DNA from: a virus
Taxonomy: Duplodnaviria; Heunggongvirae; Uroviricota; Caudoviricetes
DNA length: 12,597 nucleotides
Reading direction: 5' to 3' (one strand)
Virus record (IMG/VR): IMGVR_UViG_2663763227_000011
The position numbers and the translations under genes were made by a program. Below the pieces are notes generated by a model. The model made no database searches. It worked only from the letters and a program-made list of their open reading frames with translations, and was not told the DNA's origin. The first letter of the stretch is position 1; each line of letters begins with the position of its first letter. Shown in pieces: positions 1,462-12,597 of this stretch.

Positions 1462-1937
1462 ATATGTCCTTTTATCACTACATCAAGGCAAGCCATTGAT
1501 TTAATTAAATGATTTGCACTGCAAAAAGTGCTAAAAATCGCAAATTGACTACACCATTAACTACACCGATCGTTGCACTGTATGAAACAACGTGGAACAA
1601 ATAGACACAAGAAATATACAGGCGGGTCATCTTTCCAGGGGGAAGCGCGCTAATTCATGAGGGGCGTTAATGTTGATATGGGGATCCCCATAACGGGGCT
1701 ACCGGATTTTTTTTCCGGTTAACTGTTAATCAGGCTGGTGGGCTTTACCTGTTTTGTAGGAGTGGTCATTATGACCATTCAGACAATGACCTTAATCAGA
1801 ACTTTTCGCTAAAAAATGACGTTGGCCACGTCGTCCGGAAAGCACAAAATCCCGTCAATTTTTAATTAACGGTTAAACCGTCTTTTGTCACGGCGTGTCA
1901 CTGGTTGTAACTCTCCGTCACGGTATGTCGCTACTCG

Positions 1938-6244: not shown

Positions 6245-6292
6245 ATTTATTTTTACCCCCTCGTTTAAAAAGTTTTGAGTTGTGCCTCCCCT

Positions 6293-6519
6293 TGTCTACC
6301 TTATCTACCTTAGTGGCCCTCATGCCAGTAATGGCGCGGCTTTCAGCGGGGTAGAGTGCTTTTATCCACTATCTACCCCGTGTCTACCTCCCTGTCTGAT
6401 TCAGGTAAAATCAGGTAGAGAGGGTAGATAGTGGGTAGACAGTAAAAAAAGGCTATCTACCTAACTTAATGCACTGAATTAAATGTATTTTTCTTTACTC
6501 AGGTAGACAGGGTAGACAG
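6293..6519. repeat. Iteron-type replication origin: about 11 copies of GGTAGA(C/G)AG / CTnTCTACC in both orientations flanking an AT-rich segment
   Basis: TCTACC at 6295, 6304, 6372, 6383, 6456; GGTAGA at 6350, 6414, 6423, 6434, 6502, 6511; AT-rich stretch 6462-6500. Lies directly 3' of the primase/helicase gene, as in PICI and plasmid origins. Confidence 0.7.
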
Positions 6520-6532
6520 CAATTACAAAAAA

Positions 6533-8287
6533 TTATAAAAACGCGTCGCACTCGTCTGTTGTTATTGCGTTAGTCTGCGTTACCCCCTTAACTTTCCGCG
6601 TAATATATTCATGTCCGTAAACTTTTGCGGCAGGCTTCATAGCCTTTCCAAAGTCATTTACGTTTAGCGGTTTGCTCCTGCCTGCGTATGCCATAAACGC
6701 CAGATAGACGCGGTAAAGGCTGTTCCTGGTCGTGTACTTCACTGAATCGCCACCGCCCCCCATCATCAGGCCGCGCGCTTCCTCCAGAAAATTCAGGAAC
6801 TGGCAAAACTCAATAACCGGATCCGTCTGTTGCTTTATTGCCAGTGCTTCATCACCGTCACGCTGTTCCAGTAGTAAAGCCCGTGCCTTCTCAGGGTCGG
6901 TAAAGTTCGCCAGCAATCGGCGGATAATGACAGGGATTTCAGCCGCGATCTTTTCCGGTAGCTCCCTGTCTTTTTCGGCCTCACTGACGATATTGTCGAA
7001 ACGGAAAATCACGCGACGACGTGCCACACCTCCGGCCCGTTCGGTGAATATCATCGGGTTATTGTTGGTCGCCAGCACCACCGCCCTGATTACAGCCGTG
7101 AAACGCTTTTCGTATTTCGGGTTAATTTCCACGGGGTCACCGCCCGTGATTTTCTTGATGCCCGTTCCTTCGCCTGTATATTTCGGCTGGTCAGCCAGGA
7201 CGATAAGACGACTCCCGACAACCTGCGCACGTCCACCAGCATCATCAAGCGATGTCATTTCAGCGCTTACCGTGTTCTGTTTCCCTGCCAGAAGGCTGGC
7301 TATGTGCGTGAATGTACTTTTACCGCTCCCGCCGTCTCCGGTGGCCTCAATAAACATCTGCCAGTCGTACCGGTTCGCCATAATCATGTACAGCGCGGCA
7401 CATATACGCATCATCTTGCGCGGGTCTTTTCCGGCTGCGTGCTCAAGCCATTTATGAAAGTTTGGCGCGTTATCGCGGATGTTCTCCCCTGGTGCTGGTG
7501 GCGTGTACTCAATGCCGTTGTGCGTGGTGATCCAGTTCTCCGGCGTGTGCGGGGAAAATCCCCCCGTTTTCAGGTCAAGCGCACCATTGGCGAACGGCAG
7601 CAAATCGCCGGACGGCTCGCCCATTGGTTCGGCAATAACTTTTAACGCTTCCACGGCGTTATTGATTACGCGCTTGCTGAAAGTGGCCCTGTGCTCTGAA
7701 TAGATCGCCACCATTTCGCGGCTAAGTTCCATTGTGCTGACCGGACACCATACCCCGCCGCGCCATACGTGAACGATTTCACTTTCAGGATGTACGCAAA
7801 CGCCATCAAAGCGATCGGCAAGCAGCTGCGCGCGCTCACTGTCCGCCATCTGCGAAAGTTGCGCCTTTTGCTTTACCGGAAGCTCAATGACCAGACCATC
7901 AGAAAGATTCTGGCGCTCACGGGCCAGATATTCGCGCCAGTTCTCCACCTTCTGACCGTGCATACCATCAGGGTAAAAATTTGCATCCTGTACGCCTGCC
8001 GCCGCCAGCTTCTGGCCAATCGCCTTTATCATTACTGGCGCAAGATATCCGGCCCTGAATATGCGCACGGATTTTCTGCCTTCCGGCACAATTTGCAGCT
8101 TATCCAGTTCTGATAACTGCTGCTCCCCAAGCCACACAGGAGGCTCATTATCTCCGGCCATACGCGCATCATGTTCCTGCCATTGTTTCGCGTGTGCCCA
8201 GGCATCACTACCCGCAAAAATAATGACTTCTGTTCCTTTGTGTTTTATGCCGCGTGACTGCTGTTTTACGTTCGGTGCCAGTTTCAT
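6533..8287 (-). CDS. Primase / replication initiator with SF3-type P-loop NTPase domain (P4-family primase-helicase; Pri-Rep-like), 584 aa
   Basis: Walker A motif GDGGSGKST and Walker B-like RLIVLAD in the C-terminal half, a long N-terminal primase-like region, adjacent iteron origin. ATG overlaps the upstream stop (ATGA). Confidence 0.9.
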   Translation of the reverse strand: MKLAPNVKQQSRGIKHKGTEVIIFAGSDAWAHAKQWQEHDARMAGDNEPPVWLGEQQLSELDKLQIVPEGRKSVRIFRAGYLAPVMIKAIGQKLAAAGVQDANFYPDGMHGQKVENWREYLARERQNLSDGLVIELPVKQKAQLSQMADSERAQLLADRFDGVCVHPESEIVHVWRGGVWCPVSTMELSREMVAIYSEHRATFSKRVINNAVEALKVIAEPMGEPSGDLLPFANGALDLKTGGFSPHTPENWITTHNGIEYTPPAPGENIRDNAPNFHKWLEHAAGKDPRKMMRICAALYMIMANRYDWQMFIEATGDGGSGKSTFTHIASLLAGKQNTVSAEMTSLDDAGGRAQVVGSRLIVLADQPKYTGEGTGIKKITGGDPVEINPKYEKRFTAVIRAVVLATNNNPMIFTERAGGVARRRVIFRFDNIVSEAEKDRELPEKIAAEIPVIIRRLLANFTDPEKARALLLEQRDGDEALAIKQQTDPVIEFCQFLNFLEEARGLMMGGGGDSVKYTTRNSLYRVYLAFMAYAGRSKPLNVNDFGKAMKPAAKVYGHEYITRKVKGVTQTNAITTDECDAFL

Positions 8288-9258: not shown

Positions 9259-9478
9259 GTACCCCTCCGCATTTTTTTTCGTTAGAAATAAGCGTTCTTC
9301 TTTCCTGTTCATCGCTCAGGAATACGCAGACCTCACCGCTAAGGCGTTTAAGTAAGCCGATGATTGCCCCTGATTCGCTGTCGGTCATCATGCTAGGGTA
9401 ATCCTCTGCCAGTGCGCAAATAACTTCGATTTGGTGGGCGCGTTCTGCTGCCTGTTGTAGTGTGATTTCCTGGCTCAT
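9248..9478 (-). CDS. Hypothetical protein, 76 aa
   Basis: ATG at 9478 overlaps the TGA of the upstream 66-aa ORF (ATGA); its 3' end contains the Shine-Dalgarno and start of the next gene. Confidence 0.5.
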   Translation of the reverse strand: MSQEITLQQAAERAHQIEVICALAEDYPSMMTDSESGAIIGLLKRLSGEVCVFLSDEQERRTLISNEKKCGGVHVQ

Positions 9479-9675
9479 AAGCCTACCCCCTGACGAATAC
9501 GGGCAGCAAATACCATCACGCAGCCAGCCGGAGATTGCTGGCGTGCTTCCTGTTCGCTGGTGGCCTCAATGGTAATCACGCGCGGTTGTGCCGTGCTCAG
9601 GGCGATAAAACGCCAGATGTATTTATTCAGGTTGTGCGAGTCCCGCCCTTTCGGGTGTGTGGTATGATTTCTCAT
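9475..9675 (-). CDS. Hypothetical small protein, 66 aa, first gene of the replication operon; tentatively Icd-like
   Basis: ATG at 9675 with GAGGT Shine-Dalgarno 4 nt upstream. This is the in-frame tail of the 428-aa ORF in the track, here treated as an independent gene. The YIWRFIAL motif reminds me of proteins annotated as host cell division inhibitor Icd-like in P4-like prophages (memory only). Confidence 0.5.
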   Translation of the reverse strand: MRNHTTHPKGRDSHNLNKYIWRFIALSTAQPRVITIEATSEQEARQQSPAGCVMVFAARIRQGVGL

Positions 9676-9771
9676 AGCTACCTCGATACTGTTGCTATCG
9701 TTGGTGGTTAGAAGCCCCGTTACTGCTCCTACAGTGCGGGGTTTCGTCGTTTCTGTGCCTTTCATCAATAA

Positions 9772-9854
9772 GGTGTAAGACACAATGTAAAACAATGGTG
9801 TCTTACACGTCAACCCTTCAAAATATTTTTTTTTCGTGTATATTGTCTTACACC
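9772..9854. promoter_or_regulatory. Divergent back-to-back promoters with three copies of an 11-bp operator half-site GTGTAAGACAC
   Basis: Perfect inverted repeat GTGTAAGACAC (9773-9783) / GTGTCTTACAC (9798-9808) with a 14-bp spacer, plus a third half-site TGTCTTACACC (9844-9854). Leftward promoter: -35 TTGACG (rc of 9809-9814) and -10 TACATT, with the inverted repeat spanning its core. Rightward promoter: -35 TTCAAA (9817-9822), 16-nt spacer, -10 TATATT (9839-9844), overlapped by the third half-site. Confidence 0.55.
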
Positions 9855-9874
9855 AAAAACATGAGGGGTTAAAC

Positions 9875-10054
9875 ATGGCAACGGGTCCAAAGAATGCAAA
9901 ATCACAATCTGTAACTGCACGTATTGCCCATGAAATTATTGAAGGCATGGAGAACGTGAAAGAAGAAGGCGAAAGCACGGGACAGTTTATAAACGCAGCC
10001 ATGCGCGGCGAAATCAAACGCCGCCAGCGCCGCAAGGCCAAAGAGCAGGAGTAA
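9875..10054 (+). CDS. Small ribbon-helix-helix-like DNA-binding protein, 59 aa (candidate repressor of the divergent promoters)
   Basis: ATG 9875 with GAGGGG Shine-Dalgarno 6 nt upstream. SVTARIAHEIIEGMENVKEEGESTGQFINAAMRGEIKRRQ fits an RHH beta-strand plus two helices; good E. coli codon usage. Opposite in orientation to every other island gene. The ORF track's 9836 GTG start is rejected. Confidence 0.6.
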   Translation: MATGPKNAKSQSVTARIAHEIIEGMENVKEEGESTGQFINAAMRGEIKRRQRRKAKEQE

Positions 10055-10111
10055 CCATCACCAGCGCCGTGGTGTGAGTAACTACGGCGCATTGCTATGC
10101 AGGACAACACA

Positions 10112-10285
10112 ATGACCGATAAAGAATTGACCAAAACATTATCACCGGCACGGAAAAGACGGCGCAGAAAGATAGAGCATGAATCAGAAAGATTCGCGCC
10201 ATGTGCTTTTGCCCTTGAGCAATTCCTTAAAGAGTACAGGGAAAAGCGCTCATTGCAGGTATGGCAACGAACTGAACCAGACTGA
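10112..10285 (+). CDS. Small, highly basic protein, 57 aa, co-transcribed with the RHH gene
   Basis: ATG 10112 with AGGA 7 nt upstream (the ORF track starts at 10097). Contains RKRRRRK; rare codons suggest horizontal origin; followed by + strand terminators. No family recognised. Confidence 0.45.
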   Translation: MTDKELTKTLSPARKRRRRKIEHESERFAPCAFALEQFLKEYREKRSLQVWQRTEPD

Positions 10286-10364
10286 TTGCATTGCCCACCA
10301 GCCGCAAATGTGGCATTGTTGGCAATGCTCATGCGTTGGGGATAACGTGTAGCTTGTGTCGAGG

Positions 10365-10393
10365 GGCCACCGTAGCGGGTGGCCTTTGTTTTG
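10365..10393 (+). terminator. Rho-independent terminator of the + strand cassette
   Basis: GGCCACC-gtagcg-GGTGGCC hairpin followed by TTTGTTTTG. A second + strand hairpin with a GCAA loop and T-run at 10488-10520 may act as a backup. Confidence 0.55.
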
Positions 10394-10761
10394 CCCGTTA
10401 TTCGGCAATTGTGGCGCTTCTCCACATGGTTGATATAATCCCACTGCTCAGATTCATTTTTTGCGCAGTAGGTTAATTGTTCACAAAGGCGCTCCGGCAA
10501 CGGGGCGCTTTTTGTTTTTATTAGTTTGTAGAAACCTGACTCAGAGATAATGCTCATATTCTGATTGCCGTCAGGGGTGTAAGTTAAATTTACTCCCTTT
10601 TTATCATCAAACATCTGCAACGCTCTGGCGTTAACAATATTGGTTTCACTCCCGCCAGTAAGGCCGGAAATAACCGGAATAATTTCGGCAAAATTTTGCA
10701 GATTCTGTTTTTCAGGACGAACGAAGCCCCGCCCTTGTTCGGGAGAATATCCAGTATTCAT
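10380..10761 (-). pseudogene. KilA-N/Bro-N-like (antirepressor-like) N-terminal coding region with no in-frame stop; probably a truncated or disrupted gene
   Basis: The first ~125 aa are protein-like and contain TYTPDGNQNMSIISESGFYKLI, resembling the Bro-N/KilA-N core (P22 Ant-like SVINESGLYSLI, from memory). Beyond about 10380 the same frame continues for ~230 codons of Cys/Ser/Arg/Trp-rich junk, antisense to the + strand genes, until it joins the 66-aa ORF. The lower coordinate is approximate. Confidence 0.4.
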
Positions 10762-10813: not shown

Positions 10814-11002
10814 TTAGTGAACTGCCTCGCAGCTGTCCTTCCATGCCAGAACTTCGGATAAAGACCAGCCAACGGAACGACCGCCCAGCTTACGCCGTGA
10901 TGGGAATTGTCCGGCTTTTTCCAGGCGGTACCGACATGAGCGGCTCAGGCCTGTAAGTTGCTGACATTCTTTTTCACGTATAAAGCGATCTGTGCTTAAC
11001 AC
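10814..11002 (-). CDS. alpA: AlpA-family phage regulatory protein (Xis-like winged-helix activator), 62 aa
   Basis: LTGLSRSCRYRLEKAGQFPSRRKLGGRSVGWSLSEVLAW matches the AlpA/Vis family signature (TG-SR-T-Y...FP...LG-RSVGW...EV--W). GTG start at 11002 with GGGGGA Shine-Dalgarno; TAA stop at 10814-10816. Confidence 0.85.
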   Translation of the reverse strand: MLSTDRFIREKECQQLTGLSRSCRYRLEKAGQFPSRRKLGGRSVGWSLSEVLAWKDSCEAVH

Positions 11003-11280
11003 AATTCCCCCTTTGTTGTTTCTTAAAGAGTCATTGGGTGGATTATTGGGTTGGGTTGTGTCGGATTGTGTCAGGGTGTTTGTGGAATGGCAAACACTGG
11101 CTGCGGTCGTTTTACAGAAGCAGGGGGAATGAGAATAAAAACTCTTTTAATTCATTATGATGCAAAGGCATAAAATTTTACTTTTACGCCTTTTTTACAT
11201 ATTTTTAAGAGTGATTCGCCAGTGTATAAAAAAACAGTACACCTATAAAAATCAAATGGTTATTACGATGGCTGATTTTT

Positions 11281-11340
11281 AACCCGTTGTTCCATTTTGT
11301 TCCTTGTTGTTCGTCGTTGTGTCTCGTTGTTTCACGTTGT
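11281..11340. repeat. Six tandem 10-bp-phased repeats (consensus about TCnTCGTTGT) just downstream of the integrase stop
   Basis: aacccgttgt / tccattttgt / tccttgttgt / tcgtcgttgt / gtctcgttgt / ttcacgttgt: each 10-mer ends in TTGT, giving exact helical phasing. A second GT-rich repeat cluster (GATTGTGTC, GGGTTGTGTC) lies at 11038-11090 in the alpA leader. Confidence 0.6.
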
Positions 11341-11367
11341 CCGCATCCTGAAAAATCGCAAAAAAAA

Positions 11368-12597
11368 TTATATTTCTCTGGCTATTGGCAATGTGGTTAC
11401 GTTTTCATGTGTTCCCGCCAGTATCCCTAACCGCTCCGTCCACATATCCAGCGCGTCACGTTTCGCATCCAGATAACGGGAATGGTTATAGACTCGTTGC
11501 ATCCCTGGCATCTGATGACCTGTAAGCTGCTCCACGACGTGAGGATCCACGCCTAAATCGTTCAGCATCGTTGTAAAGGTGCGCCGGATGTCATGCAGTG
11601 ACCAGTGAGGGTGTTTTAGCCTCCTGTGCGCTAATCTGCCGTACTGCGACACGCTTGTTTCCTGTTTCACTTCCCCCAGCAATAAGCCCGTGTGCCTGTT
11701 CTGCTCCACCAGCTGCGTGACGAACGGCAGTATTGCTTCCGGTATGGGCCGGAATATTGCCACCTTCGTTTTGCTGTGTTCTTTCGGCACGGTCCAGAGC
11801 ATTTCGGTAAAATCCCACTCGCTGATCTCCGATAACCTCAGTTCTACCGTCCGGCATCCGAAAACAATCAGGAGGCGGATTAGTGCGACGTAGTAAGGGG
11901 AAAATATTTTTTTGTCCAGTGCCTGCAATAATTCGCCAAGTTCTTTGGTGCTTAAGACACGCTCGCTTATATCCGGTTTTTTCCCAACGTCCGCCACACT
12001 CATATCATCAAGAACGTTGCTGATTGCATAGCGCCGCCTCCGGCAGAACTTAAGCGCCTGTTTGCACGTCTGTAGCAAGAATCCGGCAGTAACAGGCGTT
12101 CGCTTTGCCACCTGGTCAAAACAGGCCAGCCAGTGCCGTAGCTCGCATTTATCCAGCGGCATAGCACCAATGTGCTGTATTACGTGATTATTAAGGCGCT
12201 TTTTCAGGGCGGCATAATCCACGCGGTTTTCCTTTACGTAAGACTCAAGCCAGTAGGTAAGCGCATCGCCAACCGTTACGGGCTTTAACGCTTTCTGTAC
12301 GGTGTAATTCATCTCATGACGTGGATTTTTCCCCTCAGCAAGCCAAGCGCGACACTGTGCCGCTTTTTCCCTGGCAGCTTTCAGACTCAGATCAGGATAA
12401 TTTCCCAGCTTAATCCGTTCCGGTCGTGCTCCCCTTCCCGTTCCGGCCCTGTAGGTGAAATACCAGGTTAAAAGGCCGCTGGTTGAATGCCTGACGCTCA
12501 GGTTTCCACCGTCATTAAGAAAGGCTGTTTTTTGGGCGGGTGTGCCGTTGATTTTCCTTAGCTGTGTATCACTCAGTTTGTTAAGTGCTCTGCGCAT
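11368..12597 (-). CDS. int: Tyrosine-type site-specific integrase, P4/CP4-57 family, 409 aa
   Basis: N-terminus LSDTQLRKINGTP...GGNLSVRHSTSGLLTWYFTYR matches the P4-type integrase arm-binding domain. The C-terminal catalytic region has RTVELRLSEISEWDF, HDIRRTF and the HxxxRxxY-type tail (GHQMPGMQRVYNHSRY). The start codon sits exactly at the window edge, so the true start and the adjacent att site cannot be verified. Confidence 0.9.
   Translation of the reverse strand: MRRALNKLSDTQLRKINGTPAQKTAFLNDGGNLSVRHSTSGLLTWYFTYRAGTGRGARPERIKLGNYPDLSLKAAREKAAQCRAWLAEGKNPRHEMNYTVQKALKPVTVGDALTYWLESYVKENRVDYAALKKRLNNHVIQHIGAMPLDKCELRHWLACFDQVAKRTPVTAGFLLQTCKQALKFCRRRRYAISNVLDDMSVADVGKKPDISERVLSTKELGELLQALDKKIFSPYYVALIRLLIVFGCRTVELRLSEISEWDFTEMLWTVPKEHSKTKVAIFRPIPEAILPFVTQLVEQNRHTGLLLGEVKQETSVSQYGRLAHRRLKHPHWSLHDIRRTFTTMLNDLGVDPHVVEQLTGHQMPGMQRVYNHSRYLDAKRDALDMWTERLGILAGTHENVTTLPIAREI

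Follow-up and report, generated by a model that had tools for sequence, protein, structure and literature searches.

The window analysed here is a 12,597-nucleotide stretch of DNA that carries phoQ and an 11-kb island lying between phoQ and roxA. Among the genes of the island are those for a primase, a lambda-E-type capsid protein and a decoration protein, together with the integrase gene int and the regulator gene alpA (Table 1). CFT073 has the same island at the same site. The int–alpA intergenic region of the window differs from that of EcCICFT073 at 2 of 365 nucleotides, none of which falls in the repeat array between the two genes, and the two integrases differ by one amino acid. Because the site is the same and both the intergenic region and Int are nearly identical, the element belongs to the EcCICFT073 family of phage-inducible chromosomal islands (PICIs). 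Similar int–alpA junctions are present in 878 of 5426 complete E. coli genomes. The primase gene occupies 6533-8287 on the minus strand, and a cluster of short tandem repeats (CCTTATCTA, TCTACCTCCCTG, GGGTAGACAGT, GGTAGACAG) directly downstream of it, at 6290-6541, is probably the replication origin of the island. A 428-aa ORF just downstream of alpA (9475-10761) has no Pfam match, and its counterpart in NCTC86 is annotated as a truncated BRO-N domain pseudogene.

Table 1. Features of the attP arms and of the int–alpA region, with window coordinates
Feature	Coordinates	Strand	Basis
attL crossover region, ~ATAAA(A)TATG, overlapping the phoQ stop codon	1456..1466	.	attL and attR set against the empty K-12 site
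P' arm 12-mer tandem pair ATTGACTACACC ATTAACTACACC, proposed Int arm-type sites	1544..1567	+	P4 layout, covariation
P' arm 10-mers, three phased units GAAACAACGT GGAACAAATA GACACAAGAA, inverted relative to the array	1584..1613	+	sequence; conserved in L002-L004
alpA, 62 aa, excisionase-fold winged-helix regulator, proposed binder of the 10-bp repeats	10814..11002	-	Pfam PF05930; AF2 model
Two more phased units GACACAATCC GACACAACCC, overlapping the P2 -10 and start region	11053..11072	-	sequence; conserved in relatives
P2, sigma-70-like match TTGCCA-17 bp-CACAAT, candidate alpA promoter	11065..11093	-	promoter scan
Hairpin with 12-bp stem, terminator-like, between the array and P2	11164..11193	-	fold dG -16.6 kcal/mol, z -6.4
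P1 block TTGATTTTTA...ACTG-T-run-TACAYT-GGCGAATCACTC	11215..11255	-	column conservation, spacing to the array
Array of six 10-bp direct repeats, proposed AlpA operator	11281..11343	-	sequence, shuffle test, conservation in relatives
int, P4-type tyrosine integrase, 409 aa, with Arm-DNA-bind_3 N-terminal domain	11368..12597	-	Pfam PF13356 and PF00589

Positions 11281-11340 of the plus strand read AACCCGTTGT TCCATTTTGT TCCTTGTTGT TCGTCGTTGT GTCTCGTTGT TTCACGTTGT, six back-to-back 10-mers that each end in TTGT. In the sense orientation of int and alpA (minus strand), the array reads ACAACGTGAA ACAACGAGAC ACAACGACGA ACAACAAGGA ACAAAATGGA ACAACGGGTT; TTGT appears there as ACAAC, and the unit consensus is G-R-A-ACAA-C/T-G-N. 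A sequence-only reading of this DNA had pointed to six consecutive 10-mers ending in TTGT, and both the sequence and a shuffle test bear it out. The run, in which one 4-mer occurs six times with a period of exactly 10 bp, is the longest of its kind in the window and unique in it, and among 1000 dinucleotide-preserving shuffles the longest phased run is 2 in 787, 3 in 212 and 4 in one, with a run of at least five in none. Tandem Repeats Finder likewise assigns a period of 10 to the array. The position that had been read off, just 3' of int and about 280 bp upstream of alpA, also holds: the array begins 28 bp downstream of the int stop codon (11368-11370) and lies 279-338 bp upstream of the alpA start (11002). 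The RNA of the array is unstructured on both strands (folding z-scores of +1.1 and +0.5) and an Rfam search of the array gives no matches, which together rule out a structured RNA. Replication-origin iterons were rejected as well: they are expected beside the initiator gene or in the ori region, but the array is 3 kb away from the primase gene, and other repeat clusters, at 6290-6520, adjoin that gene on its downstream side.

The GT-rich cluster at 11038-11090, which had been noticed in the alpA leader, includes the two additional phased units, with TTGT at 11056 and 11066 and hence a 10-bp spacing. P2 is the best sigma-70 match; its hexamers are conserved in L002-L004 and TG-extended in most lineages, and the array lies about 215-275 bp upstream of it. 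The hairpin between the array and P2 is conserved; relatives have A-U in place of a G-U pair. A weak U-tract, just UUUG, follows it on the sense strand, and on the plus strand it is preceded by an A-run and followed by a T6 run. It may serve as the int terminator, as a bidirectional terminator or as an attenuator. The promoter-like P1 block is the best-conserved stretch between int and alpA, and GGCGAATCACTCTT stands after its TACAYT hexamer. A good -35 at normal spacing from this hexamer is absent, and the block may be a candidate activator-dependent promoter. P1 lies downstream of the array at a spacing of 36 bp in most lineages and 38 bp in one, a difference that does not support a strict helical alignment between the array and P1.

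The array is present in 25 distinct versions in about 70 relatives drawn from E. coli genomes, IMG/VR and metagenomes. Each version has 5-6 clear units, and one has an additional 10-bp unit; over this range of 5-7 units, only ACAA and the 10-bp phase are conserved. The information content of the unit is centred on ACAA; positions 1 and 3 favour G and A, respectively, and C/T-G is preferred after ACAA, whereas the spacers vary. Between the window and the O157:H7 lineage ACAA is identical in all units while the remaining unit positions are only about half identical, which argues for selection on a phased short motif and not on the whole sequence. The sole relative that lacks the array is a degenerate island with a truncated int. 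An IMG/VR relative (L053) has one exact extra unit, a duplicated GCAACAATGA, and thus the length of the array changes in 10-bp steps with the phase kept. MAFFT column conservation and fixed-offset register analysis are confounded by 2-bp and 20-bp offsets between lineages. A scan of genome contigs with AlpA as the query gives five loci, of which the distant ones (Geobacter, Shewanella and MAGs) are uninformative. In the related fis-type PICIs the array is absent upstream of alpA. Four of these islands (L162, L163, L157 and L159) have an additional gene between int and alpA and a GC-rich hairpin with a T-run directly before the alpA ATG, within 40 bp upstream. The hairpin of L162 holds two CGTTCG repeats 10 bp apart, and L085 and L157 have two copies of the palindrome AGTGATATCACT upstream. 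The K-12 CP4-57 AlpA was set aside as a comparator; it is of another subtype, without such repeats.

The insertion point of the island coincides exactly with the stop codon of phoQ, and the corresponding coordinates in L001 are 16062-16077. The same integrase family is also found in tqsA and near tRNA-Asp. These different loci and the short crossover region suggest that the core is short and permissive. Two other cores, the 35-bp repeat ATTAACTACACCATTAACTACACCGATCGTTGCAC and ATTGAT, the latter prompted by the tqsA island, are refuted by comparison with the empty K-12 site. A reconstructed attB query has no full-length match because it was built on a wrong core. The tqsA island, which is of the same family, shares the 150 bp that precede int, and this stretch is therefore island DNA.

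Both attP arms contain a module of about 65 bp in direct orientation, which consists of a 12-mer pair (ATTAACTACACC), GATCGTTGCAC, 8 bp and 3-4 ACAA units with a 10-bp period (window 1544-1613 in the P' arm and L001 15925-15990 in the P arm). The spacer GATCGTTGCAC/GTTCGGTGCAC within the module is conserved. The second 12-mer pair falls just past the end of the window and precedes the int ATG by 25 bp, and the P arm has four 10-bp ACAA units (L001 15954-15990) adjoining its 12-mer pair. In the P' arm, the conservation among L002-L004 stops right after the third 10-mer unit. Phased ACAA runs of at least three units in the window and the attR flank occur only in the array, the P' arm (three units) and the P arm (four units), and the repeat sets of both arms are inverted relative to the array. 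In a metagenomic relative (L225), a P-arm deletion has removed most of the 10-bp repeats and the 12-mer pair is kept.

The arrangement of the two repeat types bears on which protein reads which. Arm-type sites of Int are expected within about 200 bp of the core, whereas about 1.3 kb, the int gene included, separate the array from the crossover region. In the P4 GenBank record, the attP core is flanked on each side by annotated arm repeats in the form of a tandem 12-mer pair, one of which stands 16-39 bp before the int ATG; the GGTGTAGTTAAT pairs share this layout, but the 10-bp array does not. In relatives whose AlpA is 56-70% identical, the P arm has the order core, 10-bp TGTTC or TGTTTC repeats, two 11-12-bp repeats and int ATG. 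Between PICI lineages the 12-mers vary in step with the N-terminal domain of Int: GGTGTAGTTAAT is paired with the segment SVRHSTSGL and GGTGTAGTCACT with SVKYLTSGK, although the islands with GGTGTAGTCACT share AlpA and the array with the GGTGTAGTTAAT islands. Other lineages have GTGCAGTCAG, GTGTATCACTC or GTGTGGTCAGT in the place of the 12-mer, and L083, whose Int is only 22% identical, has TGGTCCAAA there and keeps the TGTTTC 10-mers. The 10-mer motif and the AlpA helix-turn-helix are constant throughout the lineages compared, at an AlpA identity of 56-65%, and a switch of the Int N-domain and the 12-mers leaves the array unaltered; this comparison covers about eight lineages and is also compatible with another conserved binder.

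The model of AlpA by AF2 has a pLDDT of 88, and its top structural matches are the GIsul2 excisionase (8C3T, TM 0.84-0.91) and RdfS; the solved excisionases matched are PDB entries 8C3T and 8DGL. The next matches are BldC, Pukovnik Xis and TorI. On the evidence of this model, AlpA is an excisionase-fold protein. The literature searched contains no paper for 8C3T, and it does not describe AlpA binding sites in PICIs, the array or the organisation of the arms. Published genetics show that AlpA of EcCICFT073 activates the alpA promoter and leaves Pint unaffected, that AlpA without any phage activates a PalpA reporter, and that over-expression of AlpA alone leads to int-dependent excision and replication (PMC6092414). 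By its primers, the PalpA-lacZ reporter (pJP2038-type) maps to window 10945-11400, and therefore the AlpA-responsive fragment contains the whole array. The Pint reporter that is unaffected by AlpA includes the P-arm repeats. Binding of AlpA at the P arm, if it occurs, is transcriptionally silent.

From the P4 layout, the covariation, the AlpA fold and the published EcCICFT073 genetics, we infer that the 12-mers are probable sites of the Int arm-binding domain and that the 10-mers, those of the array included, are predicted AlpA sites. The earlier suggestion of an arm-type or Xis-type array thus keeps its Xis-type half, given the shared att-arm motif and the fold of AlpA, and its arm-type half is disfavoured, as it is the 12-mers that fit the P4 layout. 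Of the two binders proposed with it, AlpA is the more probable, its helix-turn-helix and the motif both being constant, and integrase is disfavoured because the motif does not covary with the Int N-domain.

Recombination directionality factors (RDFs) bind tandem repeats one helical turn apart, and Apl, Cox and Vis regulate promoters as well (PMC7498355; PMC11963761). An RDF operator array is expected to have at least three direct repeats in the same orientation at a spacing of one helical turn, and the array has six at 10 bp. The element encodes a cognate excisionase-fold protein, AlpA, and the same motif is found in both att arms beside the probable Int arm-type sites. In a limited sample of about eight lineages, the motif tracks the RDF and not the integrase.

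Several well-studied systems resemble this arrangement in part. Apl of phage 186 is an RDF that occupies direct repeats 10-11 bp apart in both att and a promoter region, as is proposed for AlpA in the island, and its seven operators at pR-pL outnumber the five at attP, so that the promoter array is the longer one, as here (PMC7498355). Apl binding is cooperative and bends DNA (PMC7498355), and the same is proposed for AlpA on the array. However, Apl is not a PF05930 protein, and it represses face-to-face promoters that its sites overlap, whereas the array lies upstream and the effect of AlpA is activation. In the P2 Cox/P4 system a tandem 10-bp array also stands upstream of a vis/alpA-type gene and an RDF activates the operon. 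The cox boxes of P4 (9176-9205, CCACTTAAAG x3, upstream of PLL and vis) are three units of a different motif with a helper-encoded binder, whereas the array has six units of the island's own att-arm motif. The binder at P4 PLL is Cox of the helper P2, but the island's own AlpA is sufficient for activation. P4 Vis is a PF05930 protein, as is AlpA, and has a dual role in excision and transcription, and each arm of the P4 attP holds a tandem pair of 12-bp Int arm repeats, one pair lying shortly before the int ATG, a layout shared by the 12-mers of the island. However, Vis is only distantly related to PICI AlpA (PMC6092414), and int and vis of P4 are not adjacent. In P4 (L249, 4100-4160), attP also has TGTTGTGTTTTA between the distal arm-repeat pair and the core, and this 12-mer recurs in the X1 site of lambda Xis, which hints at similar Vis-type and Xis-type recognition.

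Winged-helix protomers of lambda Xis (on X1-X1.5-X2), RdfS, BldC and Pukovnik Xis are arranged head-to-tail with one per helical turn, and the AlpA model superposes on folds of this type. These proteins have three or four sites in an att arm or in developmental promoters, whereas the array has six.

The array is best explained as an operator for AlpA, the excisionase-family winged-helix protein of the island, and we put the probability of this reading at about 0.6. AlpA monomers would bind head-to-tail, one per 10-bp unit and all on one face of the helix, forming a cooperative filament that bends the DNA. Filling of the array by AlpA would stimulate transcription of alpA and the following operon, and the resulting positive feedback would commit the satellite to its induced cycle. 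On the shorter arrays of the attP arms, AlpA would act with Int as a recombination directionality factor and direct excision. These arm arrays would fill at higher AlpA levels than the array does. A six-unit array is expected to fill before arrays of three to four units, so that transcription would be switched on before excision. We infer AlpA as the binder, its cooperativity, activation as the outcome, and P1 or P2 as the target promoter. Points against this reading are that P2 lies far from the array with the terminator-like hairpin in between, that P1 has no good -35 and stands at a variable distance from the array, that AlpA leaves the Pint reporter unchanged, that fis-type PICIs have no array before alpA, and that P. 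aeruginosa AlpA works as an antiterminator through another kind of site. Speculatively, the inversion of the array relative to the P arm could make a polar filament the explanation of why AlpA activates alpA and not int. Where the sequence-only reading left the choice between control of excision and control of alpA, the array more likely controls mainly alpA expression, and a direct role in excision passes to the att-arm arrays.

Several other explanations have to be weighed against an AlpA operator. AlpA may instead drive its own expression by processive antitermination through the hairpin, with the array being architectural (AlpA filaments on the P arm and on the array might bracket int, for instance) or a sink for AlpA. 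This is unlikely, although a stable and conserved hairpin does stand between the array and P1 block on one side and alpA on the other, and the fis-type PICIs have a terminator-like hairpin right before the alpA ATG. P. aeruginosa AlpA, which bears the same family name, is an antiterminator with a terminator downstream of the regulated promoter, and its element, the ABE, is a single GGGACGN5GGTA between -35 and -10 (PMC7969949). A downstream intrinsic terminator belongs to such a system, and the island has the conserved hairpin in this place, but with the poor sense-strand U-tract. The ABE differs in motif and position from the phased upstream array and is absent here, and PICI AlpA is distant from the Pseudomonas protein. 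Antitermination would also leave six phased units, conserved at the array position, without explanation. Less probable is occupation of the array by the N-terminal arm-binding domain of Int, either as a remote cluster of arm-type sites or as an Int operator for alpA or int. Int possesses an Arm-DNA-bind_3 domain, the array motif also occurs in the att arms, and arm-type sites can be tandem, as in lambda P'1-3. However, the P4 arm-repeat layout is matched by the 12-mer pairs and not by the 10-mers, and it is these pairs that vary together with the N-domain of Int. The array stays the same in islands with another Int N-domain and other 12-mers, the 10-mers of L083 survive beside a highly divergent Int, and the core is about 1.3 kb away.

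Slightly less probable again is that an inducer protein of the helper phage, such as an excisionase, docks on the array and nucleates or replaces AlpA, as P2 Cox does on P4; if true, this would explain how phage triggers alpA transcription of EcCICFT073. Lambda and phi80 induce alpA transcription, and their inducer is reported as unknown (PMC6092414); there is also a report of crosstalk between excisionases and AlpA (PMC11773190). The three tandem cox-box repeats upstream of P4 vis are a precedent, and lambda X1 contains GTTGTG. However, the array units agree only weakly with lambda X1 and X2, at 8 of 13 positions, and the phi80 attP has no GTTGT/ACAAC repeats, yet phi80 induces. Activation of the reporter by AlpA in cells without phage also speaks against this route. 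A lower probability still goes to a host protein that binds tandem 10-bp repeats, such as an OmpR/PhoB-family regulator or a nucleoid protein, or to an intrinsically bent upstream element. Six contiguous 10-bp half-sites presumably resemble OmpR F1-F2-F3, and units like GAAACA presumably resemble OmpR half-sites; the motif is conserved whichever Int a lineage carries. Against a host binder, the same motif recurs in the att arms, which are expected to hold an RDF site, and the conserved excisionase-fold protein of the element has no other assigned site. Least probable of all, the array would be a relic without function that arose by inverted duplication of the att-arm repeats or through replication slippage. 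The array motif equals the arm motif, and steps of 10 bp in unit number are typical of slippage. However, every unit retains ACAA and the phase in lineages whose spacers and flanks have diverged by about 20%, and the array is missing only from the degenerate island with truncated int. A neutral relic is unlikely given this pattern of conservation.

RDF operator arrays are already well known as a kind of site, and the array described here is therefore familiar in kind; its main importance is that it names a candidate cis-element for AlpA. EcCICFT073 is the prototype of Gram-negative phage-inducible chromosomal islands, and auto-activation of AlpA is its master switch. The analysis supplies a 60-bp candidate operator and the motif G-R-A-ACAA-Y-G at a 10-bp period as the predicted AlpA site, together with a full map of attP in which probable Int arm sites (12-mer pairs) are distinguished from probable AlpA sites (10-mer runs). 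The candidate sites make testable how the feedback switch is constructed, why AlpA activates alpA and not int, in which order transcription and excision occur, and where a signal of the helper phage could enter. The attP map may also aid the annotation of att sites and regulatory regions in many related islands.
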